Source: Escherichia coli
Lineage (GTDB): Bacteria; Pseudomonadota; Gammaproteobacteria; Enterobacterales; Enterobacteriaceae
NCBI RefSeq assembly: GCF_003334815.1
Contig: NZ_QOWO01000034.1
Strand: one strand, 5' to 3'
Length of the DNA stretch: 40,339 nt
Numbering within the stretch: position 1 is the first letter of the stretch; the number at the start of each line of letters is the position of its first letter. The notes below the pieces were generated by a model. That model was not told where the DNA came from, made no database searches, and saw only the letters and a list, made by a program, of their open reading frames with translations. Of the stretch, positions 1,092 through 40,339 are shown one piece after another. Position numbers and translations under genes: made by a program.

Positions 1092-2483
1092 ATGACAACC
1101 GAAACGCGTTCCCTCTATAGTCAACTTCCGGCTATTGATCGCTTATTGCGCGATAGCTCCTTCCTTTCTTTGCGTGATACTTATGGTCACACCCGCGTGG
1201 TGGAATTGTTGCGTCAGATGCTCGACGAAGCGCGAGAAGTGATTCGTGGCAGCCAGACGCTGCCTGCGTGGTGTGAAAACTGGGCGCAAGAAGTCGATGC
1301 CCGGTTGACGAAAGAAGCGCAGAGCGCGCTGCGTCCGGTGATCAACCTGACGGGAACCGTGCTGCATACCAACCTTGGGCGAGCTTTACAGGCGGAAGCC
1401 GCGGTGGAAGCCGTTGCGCAGGCTATGCGTTCGCCAGTGACCCTCGAGTATGATCTGGACGACGCCGGACGCGGACATCGCGATCGGGCGCTGGCGCAGC
1501 TGCTGTGCCGTATTACGGGGGCGGAAGATGCCTGTATCGTCAATAACAATGCGGCGGCGGTGTTATTGATGTTGGCGGCCACTGCCAGCGGAAAAGAGGT
1601 GGTGGTATCTCGCGGCGAACTGGTGGAGATTGGCGGCGCGTTTCGTATTCCCGATGTTATGCGTCAGGCAGGCTGCACCCTACACGAAGTAGGGACCACC
1701 AACCGCACGCACGCGAATGATTATCGTCAGGCGGTGAATGAAAATACCGCACTGTTGATGAAAGTACATACCAGTAACTACAGCATTCAGGGGTTCACCA
1801 AAGCGATAGATGAAGCGGAACTGGTGGCGCTCGGCAAAGAGCTGGATGTTCCCGTAGTGACTGATTTAGGCAGTGGCTCGCTGGTCGATCTTAGCCAGTA
1901 CGGTTTGCCGAAAGAGCCAATGCCGCAGGAGTTGATTGCGGCGGGCGTCAGTCTGGTGAGTTTCTCCGGCGACAAGTTGTTAGGCGGGCCGCAGGCAGGA
2001 ATTATTGTTGGTAAAAAAGAGATGATCGCCCGCCTGCAAAGCCACCCGCTGAAGCGTGCATTACGCGCGGATAAAATGACCCTCGCGGCGCTGGAAGCCA
2101 CGTTGCGTCTTTATTTACACCCTGAAGCTCTGAGTGAAAAATTACCGACCCTGCGCCTGCTTACCCGCAGCGCAGAGGTCATTCAAATCCAGGCACAACG
2201 TTTACAGGCCCCCCTTGCCGCACATTACGGCGCGGAGTTTGCGGTACAGGTTATGCCATGTCTTTCGCAGATTGGCAGTGGTTCGCTGCCGGTTGATCGC
2301 CTGCCGAGCGCGGCATTAACGTTTACACCCCATGATGGACGCGGTAGCCACCTTGAGTCATTAGCCGCCCGCTGGCGTGAATTGCCAGTGCCGGTGATTG
2401 GTCGTATTTATGACGGACGATTGTGGCTGGATTTACGCTGCCTTGAAGATGAGCAACGGTTTTTGGAGATGTTGTTGAAATGA
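1092..2483 (+). CDS. selA: L-seryl-tRNA(Sec) selenium transferase (selenocysteine synthase)
   Basis: 463-aa ORF with the PLP-lysine motif [13 protein letters not shown]. Its stop overlaps the selB start in ATGA. Confidence 0.97.
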
Positions 2484-4324
2484 TTATTGCGACTGCCGGA
2501 CACGTTGACCACGGCAAAACAACCTTATTGCAGGCGATTACTGGCGTAAATGCTGACCGTCTGCCGGAAGAAAAAAAGCGCGGCATGACCATCGATCTCG
2601 GCTATGCCTACTGGCCGCAGCCGGATGGTCGCGTGCCTGGTTTTATCGACGTTCCCGGTCATGAAAAGTTTCTTTCCAACATGCTGGCGGGCGTTGGTGG
2701 TATCGATCACGCGCTGTTGGTGGTGGCGTGCGATGACGGCGTGATGGCACAGACCCGTGAGCATCTGGCGATTTTGCAGCTGACCGGTAACCCGATGCTG
2801 ACAGTGGCGCTGACCAAAGCCGATCGCGTGGACGAAGCGCGTGTTGATGAGGTTGAACGCCAGGTAAAGGAGGTTCTGCGGGAATACGGTTTTGCTGAGG
2901 CAAAACTGTTTATCACCGCAGCAACCGAAGGTCGGGGAATGGATGCCCTGCGCGAGCATCTGCTTCAGTTGCCGGAACGCGAGCACGCCAGCCAACATAG
3001 TTTCCGCCTCGCGATTGACCGCGCATTTACCGTAAAAGGTGCCGGGCTGGTCGTCACCGGTACGGCGTTAAGCGGGGAAGTGAAGGTAGGCGATTCACTC
3101 TGGCTGACTGGTGTAAATAAACCGATGCGTGTACGTGCGCTGCATGCGCAAAACCAGCCAACAGAAACCGCCAATGCCGGGCAGCGTATCGCGCTTAACA
3201 TCGCGGGTGATGCGGAAAAAGAGCAGATTAACCGTGGCGACTGGCTGCTTGCCGATGTGCCGCCAGAGCCGTTCACACGGGTGATTGTCGAGCTTCAAAC
3301 CCATACACCGCTGACCCAGTGGCAGCCGCTGCATATTCACCACGCCGCCAGCCACGTCACGGGACGCGTTTCACTGCTGGAAGATAACCTTGCTGAACTG
3401 GTCTTCGACACCCCGTTATGGCTGGCAGATAACGACCGCCTGGTATTGCGCGATATCTCTGCCCGCAACACGCTGGCCGGAGCGCGCGTCGTGATGCTTA
3501 ACCCGCCGCGTCGCGGTAAACGTAAGCCGGAATATCTGCAATGGCTGGCGTCTCTTGCACGGGCGCAGAGCGATGCCGATGCGTTATCTGTTCATCTGGA
3601 ACGCGGCGCGGTTAACCTTGCGGATTTCGCCTGGGCGCGCCAGCTCAACGGCGAAGGGATGCGCGAATTGCTGCAACAGCCTGGTTATATTCAGGCTGGT
3701 TATAGCTTGTTGAATGCGCCGGTTGCCGCCCGCTGGCAGCGGAAAATTCTCGACACATTAGCGACTTATCATGAGCAACATCGCGATGAACCTGGCCCTG
3801 GGCGCGAACGTCTGCGACGTATGGCGTTGCCAATGGAAGATGAAGCGCTGGTACTGTTGCTGATTGAAAAGATGCGCGAAAGCGGCGACATCCACAGCCA
3901 TCACGGCTGGCTGCATCTGCCAGATCACAAAGCGGGCTTCAGCGAAGAGCAGCAGGCCATCTGGCAAAAAGCAGAGCCACTGTTTGGTGACGAACCGTGG
4001 TGGGTGCGTGACCTGGCAAAAGAGACGGGAACCGACGAGCAGGCAATGCGCCTGACTCTACGCCAGGCGGCGCAGCAAGGAATAATTACCGCGATCGTTA
4101 AAGATCGTTATTACCGTAACGATCGGATTGTCGAGTTTGCCAATATGATCCGCGATCTCGATCAGGAGTGTGGTTCAACCTGCGCGGCGGATTTCCGCGA
4201 TCGCTTAGGCGTAGGCCGAAAGCTGGCAATTCAGATTCTGGAATATTTTGACCGCATTGGCTTTACGCGTCGTCGTGGAAATGATCATTTATTGCGCGAC
4301 GCATTATTATTTCCGGAAAAATAA
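2480..4324 (+). CDS. selB: Selenocysteine-specific translation elongation factor SelB
   Basis: 614-aa ORF with GTPase motifs [17 protein letters not shown] and TKAD, plus a long C-terminal winged-helix extension for SECIS binding. Confidence 0.97.
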
Positions 4325-4513: not shown

Positions 4514-5665
4514 ATGGCAGCTTCAACGTTCTTTATTCCTTCTGTGAATGTCATCGGCGCTGATTCATTGACTGATGCAATGAATATGATGGCAGATTAT
4601 GGATTTACCCGTACCTTAATTGTCACTGACAATATGTTAACGAAATTAGGTATGGCGGGCGATGTGCAAAAAGCACTGGAAGAACGCAATATTTTTAGCG
4701 TTATTTATGATGGCACCCAACCTAACCCCACCACGGAAAACGTCGCCGCAGGTTTGAAATTACTTAAAGAGAATAATTGCGATAGCGTGATCTCCTTAGG
4801 CGGTGGTTCTCCACACGACTGCGCAAAAGGTATTGCGCTGGTGGCAGCCAATGGCGGCGATATTCGCGATTACGAAGGCGTTGACCGCTCTGCAAAACCG
4901 CAGCTGCCGATGATCGCCATCAATACCACGGCGGGTACGGCCTCTGAAATGACCCGTTTCTGCATCATCACTGACGAAGCGCGTCATATCAAAATGGCGA
5001 TTGTTGATAAACATGTCACTCCGCTGCTTTCTGTCAATGACTCCTCTCTGATGATTGGTATGCCGAAGTCACTGACCGCCGCAACGGGTATGGATGCCTT
5101 AACGCACGCTATCGAAGCATATGTTTCTATTGCCGCCACGCCGATCACTGACGCTTGTGCACTGAAAGCCGTGACCATGATTGCCGAAAACCTGCCGTTA
5201 GCCGTTGAAGATGGCAGTAATGCGAAAGCGCGTGAAGCAATGGCTTATGCCCAGTTCCTCGCCGGTATGGCGTTCAATAATGCTTCTCTGGGTTATGTTC
5301 ATGCGATGGCGCACCAGCTGGGCGGTTTCTACAACCTGCCACACGGTGTATGTAACGCCGTTTTGCTGCCGCACGTTCAGGTATTCAACAGCAAAGTCGC
5401 CGCTGCACGTCTGCGTGACTGTGCCGCTGCAATGGGCGTGAACGTGACAGGTAAAAACGACGCGGAAGGTGCTGAAGCCTGCATTAACGCCATCCGTGAA
5501 CTGGCGAAGAAAGTGGATATCCCGGCAGGCCTACGCGACCTGAACGTGAAAGAAGAAGATTTCGCGGTATTGGCGACTAATGCCCTGAAAGATGCCTGTG
5601 GCTTTACTAACCCGATCCAGGCAACTCACGAAGAAATTGTGGCGATTTATCGCGCAGCGATGTAA
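4514..5665 (+). CDS. yiaY: Iron-containing (group III) alcohol dehydrogenase family protein YiaY
   Basis: 383-aa ORF with Fe-ADH motifs [11 protein letters not shown] and the His cluster [16 protein letters not shown] sits upstream of the ATG. Confidence 0.93.
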
Positions 5666-13764: not shown

Positions 13765-15257
13765 AATGTGTGCTCCTTAATGCGGGCGTGAAAGCCCTGA
13801 AGTGCGGCAATGAGATGCTGATAACGTTGATATTTTTTTTGGTAAAGCTGATGGGCGGTCATATCTGGCAGCAGGGTGCGCACCGGGTGTCGCAAGTCAC
13901 GTTGGGCTTCGCTGAAGTTGTGATAAACCCCGGTGCCGACGCGGGCGGCAAGGGCCGCACCAAAGCAGCCGGTTTCTTCCACCTGCGGCAGCTCGATACG
14001 CAGACCGCTGACGTCCGCCAGCATTTGCATCCAGACATCGGAGTGCGCCGGGCCGCCAGTGACGCGTAGGGTGTGAACATCAGTAAAACGTTCGCGCATT
14101 CGGTTGAGGTGGGTCATATGGCTGAACACCACCCCTTCATAGATGGCCTGCAACAGGTGCGCGCGGGTGTGAATGGCCTGCATCCCGTAGAAACCACTGG
14201 TCATCTCGAGTCCGGCGTTGCTGCCGTACAGGAACGGCAGGAAAAAGAGATCGCCCCCAGCCTTCGGCAAGCTGGCAACGGCCTGATTGATCTCATCAAA
14301 CGAGATTTCTCCCCACTGTGCGGTAAACCATTCGAGGTTGCCGGAAGAGGTAGGGCTGGCTTCGTGAACGATAAATTCACCATCGTTAACGTAGCGACCA
14401 TAGACATACGGATGCGCTTCACCGTCACGTAAACCGCGGGTTATGCCGCTGGTCACCGCCCAGGTCCCCATCACCGCATTGAGGGTAAATTCGTCTTCGA
14501 TCCCGGCGCAGAGTGCGGTGGAAACCACATCAAACAGGCCGCCAACAACGGGCGTACCCGCTTTCAGACCGGTCAGGGCGGCTGTCTGAGCGGTGATCTC
14601 CCCGCAGATTTCGGCAGATCCGACAACAGGCGGCAGGGCGTGATTGATTTCAGCGATCCCCAGCCAGTCGGTGAGGCACGGGTCATATTCCCCAAGACTC
14701 ATGTTGTAGAGGTTGGACTCGGAAATATTGCTCTCTTCACAGCCTTTGACGCCAGTTAAACACCAGCGCAGGTAGTCGTGCGTCATCATCACGCAGCCAA
14801 TTTGCGCGTAGCGTTCTGGTTCGTGCTCTTTCAGCCAGCGTAACAGCGACACCGGATGCCCGGTCCACAAGGTTTGTCGGGTCAGCGGGTAGAGTTTTTC
14901 CGGGATGCCATCTTCCTGCCAGCGACGAACGATTTCCATCGCCCGGCGGTCCGAGGACAAAATAGCATTCCCGAGCGGTTTGTCGTTTTTATCCAGCAAA
15001 AACAAGCCCTTTCCCTGTGCGGAGATGCCGATACCGACAATTTGTTCCCCGCTAACACCAGAATGAGTAAGCAGGGCGCGAATGACAGCCATGCAGCATT
15101 GCCACAGTTCTGCCATATCGCGCTCTGCCCAGCCTGGCTGCGGGCTTAATGCGCACAGCGGCAGGCGCTGCACGCCTGCCTCCCGGCCTTCGCGGTCATA
15201 CAGCCCGGCTTTCAGCCAGCTACCGCCACAATCTAACCCCAGCCAGTATTGCGTCAT
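13761..15257 (-). CDS. lyxK: L-xylulose / 3-keto-L-gulonate kinase (FGGY family)
   Basis: 498-aa ORF with an FGGY N-terminus (LGLDCGGSWLKAG) and C-terminal motif (GGPAHSDVWMQMLADV). Confidence 0.95.
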   Translation of the reverse strand: MTQYWLGLDCGGSWLKAGLYDREGREAGVQRLPLCALSPQPGWAERDMAELWQCCMAVIRALLTHSGVSGEQIVGIGISAQGKGLFLLDKNDKPLGNAILSSDRRAMEIVRRWQEDGIPEKLYPLTRQTLWTGHPVSLLRWLKEHEPERYAQIGCVMMTHDYLRWCLTGVKGCEESNISESNLYNMSLGEYDPCLTDWLGIAEINHALPPVVGSAEICGEITAQTAALTGLKAGTPVVGGLFDVVSTALCAGIEDEFTLNAVMGTWAVTSGITRGLRDGEAHPYVYGRYVNDGEFIVHEASPTSSGNLEWFTAQWGEISFDEINQAVASLPKAGGDLFFLPFLYGSNAGLEMTSGFYGMQAIHTRAHLLQAIYEGVVFSHMTHLNRMRERFTDVHTLRVTGGPAHSDVWMQMLADVSGLRIELPQVEETGCFGAALAARVGTGVYHNFSEAQRDLRHPVRTLLPDMTAHQLYQKKYQRYQHLIAALQGFHARIKEHTL

Positions 15258-15260
15258 GGT

Positions 15261-16247
15261 TTATTGCACCTCATCCACGGCTTTCAGCAGATCAGCTCCC
15301 TGCGGCACATCTTTAACAAACATGTCGCGAACCTGATTCCCCAGTGCGTCGCTAAAGGCTTTGCGGTCGAGATCGGTGATGACTTCCACGCCCGCTTCTT
15401 TCATGCCGTCGATGATTTTTTGCTGATCTTCAGCAACCAGTTTGCGCTGATAGTTACCCGCTTCTTGTGCAGATGAAACTAGCGCCTGCTGGAACTCCGG
15501 ACTTAAGCCATCAAACTTCGCTTTGTTGATCACCACCAGAAGCGGGGAATAGGCGTGGTGCGTCAGAGAAAGGAACTTCTGCACTTCGAAAAATTTTGCT
15601 GACCAGACGACGTTGATCGGGTGTTCCTGAGCGTCGATAGTGCGGGTTTCCAGCCCGGTATAGACTTCGGCAAACGGCATCGGGATCGGGTTAGCGCCAA
15701 AGACTTTGAATGCGGCGATATTCATCGGGCTATTGTTGGTGCGGATTTTCAGCCCTTTCAGGTCGGCGGGGGTTTTAACCGGTGCGCGCGAGTTGGTGAC
15801 ATCGCGCCAGCCGTTTTCCCAGTAGGCCAGTACTTTCAGTCCTTTACCTTCAAGTGAGGCTTTCAGATCATCACCGACTTTGCCGTCGAGCGTTTTATGC
15901 GCGTGAGCGGTATCGCGGAACAGGAAAGGGACATCAAGCAAGTTCATCACTGGTGATAACCCGGCAAAGTTATTCGAGCCGGACATTTCCATATCGATGG
16001 TGCCGCCACGTACGCCGCTGATCATCGCCTGCGCGTTACCGAGAGTGCTGTCCGGGAACAGTTTTAATTTCAGCTCGCCTTTGGTTCTCTCCTGCAATAA
16101 ATCATTGAATTTTTTCGCCGCAATATGTTGCGAGTCGGTTTGTGATGTTTCATAACCGAAACGTAAAGATTGTGCCGCCAGAGAAGATGTGCTGAATGCA
16201 GCCAGGCCAGCAATGAATAATGCGTAGGTTACAGAGCGTAATTTCAT
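15261..16247 (-). CDS. yiaO: TRAP transporter periplasmic solute-binding protein (DctP family)
   Basis: 328-aa ORF with a signal peptide (AAFSTSSLAA-QS) and DctP-family sequence. Confidence 0.95.
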   Translation of the reverse strand: MKLRSVTYALFIAGLAAFSTSSLAAQSLRFGYETSQTDSQHIAAKKFNDLLQERTKGELKLKLFPDSTLGNAQAMISGVRGGTIDMEMSGSNNFAGLSPVMNLLDVPFLFRDTAHAHKTLDGKVGDDLKASLEGKGLKVLAYWENGWRDVTNSRAPVKTPADLKGLKIRTNNSPMNIAAFKVFGANPIPMPFAEVYTGLETRTIDAQEHPINVVWSAKFFEVQKFLSLTHHAYSPLLVVINKAKFDGLSPEFQQALVSSAQEAGNYQRKLVAEDQQKIIDGMKEAGVEVITDLDRKAFSDALGNQVRDMFVKDVPQGADLLKAVDEVQ

Positions 16248-21279: not shown

Positions 21280-21378
21280 GCCAGATGCGGCGTAAACGCC
21301 TTATCCGGCCTACAAATTCTTCCAAATTCAATATATTGCAGAAATCATGTAGGCCTGATAAGCGTAGCGCATCAGGCA
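21280..21378. repeat. BIME: two inverted REP elements between convergent ysaA and avtA
   Basis: GCCAGATGCGGCGTAAACGCCTTATCCGGCCTAC (21280-21313) and GTAGGCCTGATAAGCGTAGCGCATCAGGCA (21349-21378). Confidence 0.85.
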
Positions 21379-37943: not shown

Positions 37944-40013
37944 ATGTCTGAGAAAACTTTTCTGGTGGAAATCGGCACTGAAGAGCTGCCACCAAAAGCA
38001 CTGCGCAGCCTGGCTGAGTCCTTTGCTGCGAACTTTACTGCGGAGCTGGATAACGCTGGCCTCGCACACGGCACCGTTCAATGGTTTGCTGCTCCGCGTC
38101 GTCTGGCGCTGAAAGTAGCTAACCTGGCGGAAGCGCAACCGGATCGTGAAATCGAAAAACGCGGCCCGGCGATTGCCCAGGCGTTCGACGCTGAAGGCAA
38201 ACCGAGCAAAGCGGCAGAAGGTTGGGCGCGTGGTTGCGGTATTACCGTTGACCAGGCTGAGCGTCTGACTACCGATAAAGGCGAATGGCTGCTGTATCGC
38301 GCCCATGTGAAGGGCGAAAGCACCGAAGCACTGCTGCCGAATATGGTTGCGACTTCTCTGGCGAAACTGCCGATCCCGAAACTGATGCGTTGGGGCGCAA
38401 GCGACGTGCACTTCGTGCGTCCGGTGCACACCGTGACCCTGCTGCTGGGCGACAAAGTCATTCCGGCAACCATTCTGGGCATTCAGTCCGATCGCGTGAT
38501 TCGCGGCCACCGCTTTATGGGCGAGCCGGAATTCACCATCGATAACGCCGATCAGTATCCGGAAATTCTGCGTGAGCGTGGGAAAGTCATCGCCGATTAC
38601 GAAGAACGTAAGGCGAAGATTAAAGCCGATGCCGAAGAAGCAGCGCGTAAGATTGGCGGTAACGCTGACTTAAGCGAAAGCCTGCTGGAAGAAGTGGCTT
38701 CGCTGGTGGAGTGGCCGGTCGTTCTGACCGCAAAATTCGAAGAGAAATTCCTCGCGGTGCCGGCTGAAGCGCTGGTTTACACCATGAAAGGTGACCAGAA
38801 ATACTTCCCGGTGTATGCGAACGACGGCAAACTGCTGCCGAACTTTATCTTCGTTGCCAACATCGAATCGAAAGATCCGCAGCAGATTATCTCCGGTAAC
38901 GAGAAAGTCGTTCGTCCGCGTCTGGCGGATGCCGAGTTCTTCTTCAACACCGACCGTAAAAAACGTCTTGAAGATAACCTGCCGCGCCTGCAAACCGTGT
39001 TGTTCCAGCAACAGTTGGGGACGCTGCGCGACAAAACTGACCGCATCCAGGCGCTGGCTGGCTGGATTGCTGAACAGATTGGCGCTGACGTTAACCACGC
39101 TACCCGTGCGGGTCTGCTGTCTAAGTGCGACCTGATGACCAACATGGTCTTCGAGTTCACCGACACCCAGGGCGTTATGGGGATGCACTATGCGCGTCAC
39201 GATGGCGAAGCGGAAGATGTCGCGGTGGCGCTGAATGAGCAGTATCAGCCGCGTTTTGCTGGTGATGACCTGCCGTCCAACCCAGTAGCTTGTGCGCTGG
39301 CGATTGCTGACAAGATGGATACCCTGGCGGGTATCTTCGGTATCGGTCAGCATCCGAAAGGCGACAAAGACCCGTTTGCGCTGCGTCGTGCCGCGCTTGG
39401 CGTGCTGCGAATTATCGTTGAGAAGAACCTCAACCTTGATCTGCAAACGCTGACCGAAGAAGCGGTGCGTCTGTATGGCGATAAGCTGACTAATGCCAAC
39501 GTAGTTGATGATATTATCGACTTTATGCTCGGTCGCTTCCGCGCCTGGTATCAGGACGAAGGTTATACCGTTGACACCATCCAGGCGGTACTGGCGCGTC
39601 GTCCGACTCGTCCGGCTGATTTCGATGCCCGTATGAAAGCGGTATCGCATTTCCGTACCCTGGATGCAGCTGCTGCACTGGCGGCGGCGAACAAACGTGT
39701 ATCTAACATTCTGGCGAAATCTGACGAAGTGCTGAGCGACCGCGTGAATGCCTCTACCCTGAAAGAGCCGGAAGAAATTAAACTGGCGATGCAGGTTGTG
39801 GTGCTACGTGACAAGCTGGAGCCGTACTTTACGGAAGGTCGTTACCAGGATGCGCTGGTCGAACTGGCTGAGCTGCGTGAACCGGTTGATGCTTTCTTCG
39901 ATAAAGTGATGGTCATGGTTGATGACAAAGAATTGCGTATCAACCGTCTGACCATGCTGGAGAAACTGCGCGAACTGTTCCTGCGCGTTGCGGATATTTC
40001 GCTGTTGCAATAA
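37944..40013 (+). CDS. glyS: Glycyl-tRNA synthetase beta subunit
   Basis: 689-aa ORF placed 9 nt after glyQ. Recognised as GlyS. Confidence 0.97.
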
Positions 40014-40030
40014 TAACGCCGTTATTAAAT

Positions 40031-40057
40031 AGCCTGCCATCTGGCAGGCTTTTTTTA
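40031..40057 (+). terminator. Rho-independent terminator of glyQS
   Basis: AGCCTGCC/GGCAGGCT forms a stem with the loop ATCT, followed by T7. Confidence 0.85.
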
Positions 40058-40187
40058 TCGCTAAATAATACAGCAACCTTTAATAATCTTCTGCTGAATA
40101 AAGATTATCTCATATATTAATTTTATGAGATTTTTTTAGGATTATATCAAGGAGAAGAAACAAACTTATTAAGCTAGAATAGCCACG

Positions 40188-40265
40188 GGTGCTTGAGACT
40201 GTTTGTCTCAGGTATTCACCGAAAGGCAGACAGAGAAAAGCCCCACCTGACTATAAATCAAAGTT
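40188..40265 (+). pseudogene. hokA: 5' leader fragment of the hokA (hok/sok-type, type I toxin-antitoxin) mRNA, truncated by IS150
   Basis: GGTGCTTGAGACTGTTTGTCTCAGG...GGCAGACAGAGAAAAGCCCCACCT aligns by eye with the 5' end of plasmid R1 hok mRNA (GGCGCTTGAGGCTTTCTGCCTCATG...GGCAGAAAGAAGATAGCCCCGTAG). It includes a 5' stem-loop, TGAGAC/GTCTCA at 40194-40210. A TAGAAT -10 lies at 40175-40180. Confidence 0.65.
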
Positions 40266-40339
40266 TGTACTGACCCCAAAAAGTTGGACAGTTAAACACG
40301 AGGCATATAGGTCTGATTCCGATATTCAATTGGAGTCAG
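40266..40339 (+). mobile_element. IS150 (IS3 family) terminal inverted repeat and first 74 bp; the element runs off the right edge
   Basis: TGTACTGACCCCAAAAAGTTGGACAGTTAAACACGAGGC matches my recollection of the IS150 end, with the TG... terminus typical of the IS3 family. K-12 carries IS150 between glyS and hokA. Confidence 0.75.

Follow-up and report, generated by a model that had tools for sequence, protein, structure and literature searches.

An IS150-disrupted hokA/sokA locus in Escherichia coli and the recurrent position of IS150 in hok leaders

The 40,339-nt stretch of Escherichia coli DNA analysed here (contig NZ_QOWO01000034.1; hereafter the window) ends, beyond the 3' end of glyS, in the 5' leader of a hok-family messenger RNA (mRNA) that gives way abruptly to the terminal repeat of the insertion sequence (IS) IS150. 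We read this end as the chromosomal hokA/sokA type I toxin–antitoxin locus in an IS150-disrupted state, at a probability of about 95%. The junction is made up of the following features, in which IRL and IRR denote the left and right IS150 terminal repeats:

40187-40264, plus strand: hokA mRNA leader, nucleotides 1-78 (Rfam RF01794; identity to intact hokA loci)
40230-40264, minus strand: sokA remnant of 35 nt from the 3' end, promoterless and with its terminator hairpin cut short (NC_000913.3 annotation)
40265, no strand: orphan T, in neither leader nor IS150 (G in intact loci and in strain CREC-544)
40266-40339, minus strand: IS150 right end (IRR, TGTACTGACCCCAAAAAGTTGGAC...), 100% identical to annotated IS150 copies

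The leader begins with GGGTGCTTGAG at 40187. A scan of the window with Rfam placed a match to RF01794 at 40187-40326 on the plus strand, with 70.1 bits (E=3.3e-15) against a gathering score of 59 bits. When the scan was ended at 40265, 67.0 bits were retained by the 79 nt 40187-40265 (model positions 1-84 of 157); the entire signal therefore lies in this segment, and the alignment past 40265 is padding on IS150 sequence with low posterior probability. Full-length matches are obtained in the uninterrupted hokA loci of strains 1919D62 and O157:H7 EDL933 (124 and 119.6 bits), compared with which about half of the model is missing from the window. These full-length matches terminate exactly on the hokA ATG, and the model, although named ‘sok’, therefore describes the sense strand of the hok leader. 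We note in this connection that RF01794, listed as ‘sok antitoxin (CssrC)’, extends over the hok mRNA leader between +1 and the ATG of hok, and that its matches (window 40187-40326, plus strand; stretch L004, 429-580) are antisense to the sokA and sokE genes as annotated.

Leader nucleotides 1-78 are identical to those of uninterrupted hokA loci, and position 79 (40265) is T where these have G. The 79-nt leader RNA folds at −26.7 kcal/mol (z=−3.88), with 0 of 200 shuffles folding as well, and in the isolated fragment the 5' stem-loop spans nucleotides 1-58 (40187-40244), with GGGUGCU pairing with AGCCCC. A first-pass annotation, made from the letters of the window, had placed about 78 nt of leader with a 5' stem-loop at 40188-40265. 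Both the leader and the stem-loop are real, the former also by the covariance-model comparison which that annotation had proposed (70.1 and 67.0 bits against 59), while the boundaries move by one base, the start to 40187 and the end of homology to 40264.

The IS150 sequence that starts at 40266 reads TGTACTGACCCC, and the final 74 nt of the window are 100% identical to annotated IS150 elements in thousands of records. The last 400 nt as a whole (39940-40339) are 100% identical to MG1655, REL606 and many other genomes. In MG1655 the IS150 at hokA is annotated as a mobile element of 1443 bp (3720633-3722075); the copies in strains W, Sanji and REL606 have the same length, and those of W and Sanji show 0 mismatches to the K-12 copy. 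The two ends match at 22 of 31 terminal positions and form imperfect inverted repeats beginning TGTACTG. The transposase genes insJ/insK, labelled by RefSeq in MG1655 and other strains as ‘IS3-like element IS150 family transposase, programmed frameshift’, lie on the minus strand, opposite to glyS and hokA, and are directed away from hokA. The element thus shows the terminal identity and 1443-bp length, the inverted repeats and the insJ/insK frameshift of IS150; a 3-bp duplication is the one hallmark that is absent.

Beyond IS150, the genomes identical to the window continue with the element end ...GGGTGCAGTACA and then with tactcgttggaaatcaacacaggaggctgggaATG, leading into hokA. In MG1655 and REL606 a 50-codon hokA open reading frame (ORF) starts 32 nt past the element, and its product matches the Pfam family HOK_GEF with 76.2 bits (cut-off 22), which places a Hok/Gef toxin ORF just outside the window. 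The MG1655 annotation lists hokA as b4455, a mokA pseudogene (b4647) ending at IS150 and a sokA pseudogene (b4614). The last of these, at 3722077-3722111 of NC_000913.3, corresponds to window 40230-40264 by coordinate conversion and by sequence identity, and the same record leaves the orphan T (3722076) unassigned. The first-pass annotation had described a hok-family locus cut by IS150 and had suggested that extension to the right would recover the other end of the element and hokA. We therefore find both parts of this description borne out: the homology break and the terminal repeat lie within one base of where they had been placed, and the other IS150 end and an intact hokA ORF are present in the identical genomes.

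The structure of the junction is, in contrast, not that of a simple insertion. The deletion was defined by aligning the K-12 sequence, minus the IS, against the intact loci of 1919D62 and EDL933. In the K-12-type allele, gaggctaccctATGcctgaacaccataaggttagcctct (39 nt) is exchanged for a single T plus IS150, and homology restarts at tactcg (mRNA nucleotide 118). The flanks thus read ...aaatcaaagtt/IS150/tactcgttgg..., and 37-39 nt of the leader (mRNA nucleotides 79/81-117) are gone; strain CREC-544 carries a K-12-type allele with G in place of the T, for which the loss is 37 nt. Comparison of the flanks reveals no 3-bp target duplication at the K-12-type junction, since gtt and tac are not a repeat. 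The deleted stretch contains the mokA ATG (mRNA nucleotide 90) as well as the sokA −10 (nucleotides 106-111), the sokA start and the first ~20 nt of sokA. Consequently, the K-12-type allele has neither a mok ORF coupled to hok, mokA being annotated as a pseudogene, nor a Sok RNA gene with its own promoter in the leader. Past IS150, the identical genomes retain only the sokA −35, the remainder of mokA, hokA and the fbi element.

These observations run counter to three expectations of the first-pass annotation: a 3-bp target duplication, mok and most of sok lying past the element, and sokA being found there on extension. In fact, the flanks and the loss of 37-39 nt refute the duplication, the mokA ATG, the sokA −10 and ~20 nt of sokA are deleted, and the 3' 35 nt of sokA lie in the window itself (40230-40264, minus strand), with only the sokA −35 past the IS. 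Users of this locus will thus find the sokA remnant on the glyS side of IS150. Because 37-39 nt are lost, the K-12-type allele cannot revert by precise excision, and the locus is not restorable in that way.

An insertion accompanied by a deletion is not foreign to IS150. In three populations of the long-term evolution experiment (LTEE), 14 of 68 IS150 movements lacked a duplication and were accompanied by a loss of between 14 bp and 49 kb (bioRxiv 10.1101/2024.06.02.596822); the share of such movements in the LTEE is put at about 17%. This ‘IS150-del’ class resembles the window allele in that a deletion adjoins the new IS150 copy and a target duplication is missing; it was observed in real time, whereas the event behind the window allele is ancient, is one that we infer from the comparison of alleles, and may have been two successive events. 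The missing duplication fits IS150-del events and is no argument against the element being IS150.

What the deletion removes is best seen in the intact locus. There, mokA comprises 70 codons, with its ATG at mRNA nucleotide 90, in frame and continuous with hokA. On the opposite strand, alignment identifies a sokA promoter, TTGATT-17 nt-TAACCT, homologous to the R1-type TTGCGC-17-TATCCT; the sok terminator is likewise laid out as in the R1-type locus. The 5' 20 nt of the leader in the window (tac) are predicted to pair with the 3' element of K-12 hokA (fbi; stretch L001, ~5498-5515) at −21.5 kcal/mol, compared with −13.4 ± 2.4 kcal/mol for shuffled controls, 4 of 500 of which pair at least as well. 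Similarly, the minimum free energy fold of the intact mRNA has its 5' and 3' ends paired. In the K-12-type allele, tac and fbi lie on opposite sides of IS150, and past the element fbi and the Shine-Dalgarno region of hokA (aggagg) are both preserved.

In the model established for plasmid R1 by the Gerdes laboratory, hok/sok is a type I toxin–antitoxin system in which pairing of the 5' and 3' ends locks the full-length mRNA. By analogy with R1, intact hokA would be transcribed from a weak promoter into a stable mRNA of ~370 nt (an estimate based on how far fbi lies from the 5' end), whose tac would pair with fbi and render it untranslatable. Trimming of the 3' end would then allow the 5' end to refold and mokA to be translated, which in turn would permit synthesis of HokA, a predicted 50-residue membrane toxin. 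An antisense SokA of ~56 nt, expressed from the promoter inside the leader, would pair with the mokA initiation region and block mokA translation. In the K-12-type allele, 1443 bp of IS150 after leader nucleotide 78-79 leave the promoter and tac/ucb stem-loop on one side, with mokA, hokA and fbi on the other; the loss of the mokA start together with that of the sokA −10 and of the start site and 5' recognition segment of SokA would disable toxin and antitoxin together, by one event or by two closely linked ones. With both partners disabled, an insertion in an antitoxin gene would thus be tolerable.

The kinship with R1 hok/sok extends over the whole locus: a −10 box, the 5' end GG(C/G)(G/T)GCTTGAG, a GGCAGA.AGA..A.AGCCCC box, the mok start region GAGGC..CCC..ATG, a promoter for sok on the other strand (TAGCCTCTTAC region), an ORF of the Hok/Gef family and, on the 3' side, an element complementary to the 5' end. 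Unlike the plasmid system, the hokA locus is chromosomal, is split by IS150 and is devoid of the mok start and the sok −10.

Other E. coli strains carry IS150 in the hokA leader in different forms:

E. coli W hokA: ...aaatcaAAG/IRL...IRR/AAGtgaggct, orientation opposite to K-12, 3-bp duplication
G3/10 hokA: ...aaagtg/IRL...IRR/aagtgaggct
WP3-S18-ESBL-08 hokA: AAG/IRR...IRL/AAG, K-12 orientation, no deletion

In E. coli W the element occupies 1529-2971 of stretch L002. Derivation of the K-12 allele from any of these three by simple deletion was considered and rejected, as the flanks forbid it: the left flank of the WP3 allele lacks ‘tg’, and the W and G3/10 elements have the opposite orientation. 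WP3-S18-ESBL-08 (stretch L011, ~3440), besides having IS150 in the leader, is one A short before the hokA ATG (ggctgggATG vs ggctgggaATG). The hokA leader of NCTC86 (stretch L005, ~500-520) contains no IS and has a 46-nt gap, aaatcaaa/gttggaaatc; judging from the flanking sequence, this gap would be the product expected if IS150 were lost from a K-12-type allele via the GTT microhomology present on both sides. A query for the NCTC86-type scar returned 172 genomes; this figure does not count scars, since in intact loci BLAST bridged the intervening 46 nt and merged both halves of the query.

The allele in the window is not distinguishable from that of MG1655, with which it shares the last 400 nt, the junction, the orphan T and the 35-nt sokA remnant, and it is also present in REL606 and in ~30% of complete E. 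coli genomes. We surveyed 5426 such genomes with a 60-nt query centred on the junction, of which at least 80% had to be covered. The K-12-orientation junction (leader beside IRR) was found in 1644 of the 5426 genomes (~30%), a count that includes a few CREC-544-type and WP3-type variants. The W/G3/10-type junction was found in 922, and the uninterrupted locus, represented by a reconstructed intact query, in 2813. About 47% of complete E. coli genomes thus carry IS150 at this spot of hokA in some form. Most of the sampled carriers of the junction are natural isolates, from people, cattle, poultry, pigeon, goose, frog and seawater, and the junction of E. coli B REL606 is exactly that of K-12. 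The view of the first-pass annotation that the junction serves as a strain marker does not survive these counts, since it cannot tell K-12 from E. coli B or from ~1600 other sequenced strains.

That the arrangement is the published inactivation state of K-12 hokA and not novel, as the same annotation had stated, agrees with the record of NC_000913.3 and with two papers. Both cite Pedersen & Gerdes 1999: in the passage of PMC7232551 concerned, five K-12 hok loci are described as non-functional through insertion elements, point mutation or rearrangement, and in that of PMC11551753 the sokA of MG1655 is described as disrupted by IS150. The hokA::IS150 state is thus already known and annotated in RefSeq, and the feature in the window is in itself of little consequence, a pseudogene arrangement of textbook level. 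As to the toxin, HokA from MG1655 is toxic on overexpression (bioRxiv 10.1101/2025.08.07.668861), and the same preprint, in the place where it cites Pedersen & Gerdes, gives the IS-free chromosomal hokA of E. coli C as showing no post-segregational killing.

Upstream of the leader, the region between glyS and hokA contains the following features:

ending at 40013: glyS stop codon (open reading frame list)
40031-40050, plus strand: glyS intrinsic terminator, an 8-bp G+C-rich stem followed by a T-run (consensus terminator scan)
40175-40180, plus strand: TAGAAT, probable hokA −10, 6 nt upstream of the leader start

An A+T-rich spacer separates the terminator from TAGAAT, which in a pairwise alignment falls on the TATGAT that precedes the hok leader of the plasmid R1 type. 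From its position and this homology, TAGAAT is the probable −10 of the hokA promoter; the first-pass annotation had pointed out the same hexamer, which is indeed present, though its “just after” the terminator was loose for a distance of 125 nt. The candidate −35, GAGAAG, is poor and stands at 17-nt spacing to TAGAAT. The spacer also contains a palindrome at 40107-40131 with 8-nt arms (atctcata tattaattt tatgagat), ~45 nt upstream of the putative −10, which is kept in all strains compared. Only two Rfam matches in the whole window exceed threshold, RF01794 and the small RNA ES036 (CssrF) at 21314-21356 on the plus strand (46.1 bits against a gathering score of 37.6). Sub-threshold matches near the glyS terminator (STnc370, Phe/Trp leaders, istR and others) were rejected as terminator look-alikes.

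Several points weigh against the reading of the window end as a disrupted, silent hokA/sokA locus. The window ends 74 nt into IS150, and what follows to the right is known from genomes that match its last 400 nt completely. In 39950-40339, the hokA promoter was not called by a simple sigma-70 consensus scan, because the −35 belonging to TAGAAT is poor. The silence of hokA in the K-12-type allele, which we infer from the lost parts, would be undone by a non-consensus promoter directed outward from the IS150 end. Finally, the G in CREC-544 in place of T means that the junction base itself has been altered since, and the insertion and the deletion may have been one event or two.

Three other accounts of the window allele were weighed against this background. 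A clean insertion, with a 3-bp duplication, with full mok, hok and most of sok past the IS and with precise excision restoring the locus, has true counterparts in the AAG/IS150/AAG alleles of E. coli W and of WP3-S18-ESBL-08, the latter in K-12 orientation and without deletion. The junction in the window is nevertheless of the K-12/REL606 type (...aaagtt / tactcg...), with no repeat and 37-39 nt gone, the mokA ATG and the sokA −10 fall in the lost stretch, and the sokA remnant is on the window side; already refuted for the genomes identical to the window end, this account retains hardly any probability. It is also very improbable that the fragment is not dead, i.e. that the promoter and the 78-nt leader drive a chimeric transcript into IS150, complementary to the transposase mRNA at its 3' end, or that the leader is kept as a small RNA. 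The promoter-proximal part and its stable 5' stem-loop are intact, transcription from 40187 would enter insK in antisense, and the allele is old and widespread (1644 genomes); however, the 78 nt are identical to intact loci and so show no change hinting at a new function, descent explains the wide distribution, and loss of the IS together with further leader sequence is possible, as seen in the NCTC86 scar allele. An orphaned rather than silenced toxin, with hokA still expressed from an outward promoter in the left end of IS150 or by read-through, would be in keeping with the intact ORF, Shine-Dalgarno region and fbi and with the toxicity of overexpressed MG1655 HokA (bioRxiv 10.1101/2025.08.07.668861). 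We nonetheless consider it unlikely, given that no consensus promoter facing hokA was found in the 170 nt upstream, at the IS150 left end, that the transposase genes point away, that the mokA start needed for coupled translation in the R1 model is deleted, and that carrier strains are healthy although sokA is destroyed.

The position of the element within the leader is shared far beyond hokA. In strain Sanji, hokE reads ...tatcaaCCC/IRL...IRR/CCCtggggct (IS150 at 1880-3322 of stretch L010), and in REL606, hokX reads ...tatcaACC/IRL...IRR/ACCtgaggct (IS150 at ~14450-15900 of stretch L013). For sokE, the IS150 insertion has been described in XL1-Blue and in >400 natural isolates (PMC11551753). 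Both sokE::IS150 and the hokX::IS150 of E. coli B occupy the homologous leader position, as in the window allele, and differ from it in being clean, with 3-bp duplications and IRL on the promoter side, whereas the IS150 of the window allele is inverted relative to theirs, lacks a duplication and is accompanied by the loss of 37-39 nt.

A wider scan, with one genome per species and the 24-nt IS150 terminal motif TGTACTGMMCCCAWWWWGTTGGAC as query, returned at least 120 stretches, which are a sample of sites and not a census. Among the matches listed, most are IS150-group relatives in Streptococcus and Clostridia. The motif is present in many genomes of Streptococcus, Clostridia, Alistipes and Fusobacterium, frequently where a contig ends. 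Inside, these elements are unlike IS150 (<66 of 74 positions identical), and they are therefore IS150-group relatives with conserved ends. Enterobacterial insertions in hok leaders were listed for Shigella flexneri (AAC), Superficieibacter electus, one further Enterobacteriaceae genome, Enterobacter adelaidei (on a plasmid), E. bugandensis (ACC), E. chuandaensis, two Kluyvera species and [Erwinia] mediterraneensis (ACC). In the listed enterobacterial hok cases, the IS end meets the leader within ~2 nt of one place, just 5' of YGAGGC. RF01794 leaders beside several of these ends score 72.4, 63.6 and 63.7 bits. In this arbitrary sample, 14 of the 15 enterobacterial-type insertion sites are of the hok-leader kind, the exception being a site in Enterobacter sp. 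Cy-643 that cannot readily be recognised as a hok leader. In the scan of other genera, IRL is on the promoter side in every case for which the whole element or the promoter-side junction was recovered; the remaining cases, with only the IRR end recovered, beside YGAGGC, fit the same orientation.

Some observations on these stretches stand apart from the insertion site. In Shigella flexneri SFBU1023 (stretch L031, 3433-5415) the IS150 ends are 1983 bp apart instead of 1443 bp, leaving ~540 extra bp. Contigs assigned to Marinobacter sp. B9-2 (2.3 kb), Methylobacillus sp. MM3 (454 nt) and Moraxella osloensis (3.4 kb) carry an E. coli-type hokE::IS150, a K-12-type hokA::IS150 and a W-type hokA::IS150 junction, respectively, and these are probably E. 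coli contamination of the assemblies. Just downstream of the hok ORF, IS186/IS421 is present at hokE in MG1655 (stretch L009, 2008-3352) and Sanji (L010, 3623-3681) and at hokX in REL606 (L013, 12912-14024); in Sanji hokE and REL606 hokX, the leader is additionally occupied by IS150. These cases hint at another site of repeated insertion, located in the 3' part of hok loci.

In sum, at least four hokA alleles, hokE, hokX and the hok loci of six other enterobacterial genera have the element at the homologous position, which corresponds to the boundary between the loop and the 3' arm of the sok terminator palindrome, and the 3-bp duplications differ among hok::IS150 alleles (AAG, CCC, ACC, AAC). 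Recurrence at the nucleotide level, with different duplications in paralogues as well as orthologues, is not a matter of descent or of selection for inactivation alone, and it points to a target preference of IS150. We consider it likely that IS150 and relatives sharing its 24-nt terminal repeat have a strong preference, in site and orientation, for one spot of hok mRNA leaders, namely the 3 nt directly before the conserved YGAGGC motif that belongs to the mok initiation region; this spot lies where the sok terminator hairpin has its foot. A rule of this kind is partly in the literature, in the form of sokA::IS150 and sokE::IS150. IS1397 and ISKpn1, which insert specifically into palindromic units (REP; PMC1525189), are likewise IS3-family elements with a strongly preferred, hairpin-forming intergenic target; their target sequence differs from the hok leader site, and IS150 is also found to enter many other places during laboratory evolution. 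A literature search yielded no biochemical evidence for target recognition by IS150. Targeting of the IS911 type, by similarity between the hok target and the IS150 terminal repeat, was considered and set aside, as by eye only TG and a nearby CCC are common to both and no convincing match emerges. In the literature on the LTEE, hokB/sokB is a recurrent target. Schneider in 2000 and Woods in 2006 are said to have reported these events as IS150 insertions; our literature search on hokB together with IS150 found no paper.

The position could instead reflect selection for the joint disabling of toxin and antitoxin and retention of the element in a harmless site, with no target preference. Only an insertion between the hok promoter and mok/sok disables both partners in a single event, and IS150 inserts at many unrelated sites, as in the 68 events in three LTEE populations (bioRxiv 10.1101/2024.06.02.596822). 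Selection of this kind does not, however, explain a near-nucleotide precision (~2 nt) in hokA, hokE, hokX and six other genera, nor that the insertions mostly share one orientation while their duplications differ (AAG, CCC, ACC, AAC), and as the sole cause it appears rather doubtful to us.

If IS150 does prefer this site, IS-inactivated chromosomal hok loci would arise mainly from transposon targeting and not only from selection, which would explain the insertion elements in the leaders of several chromosomal hok loci (hokA, hokE, hokX). The hok leader would then offer a defined natural target for the study of target choice in the IS3 family, and the history of IS150 copies would be readable from hok loci. 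In enterobacteria, hok leaders would be a long-term home of IS150.

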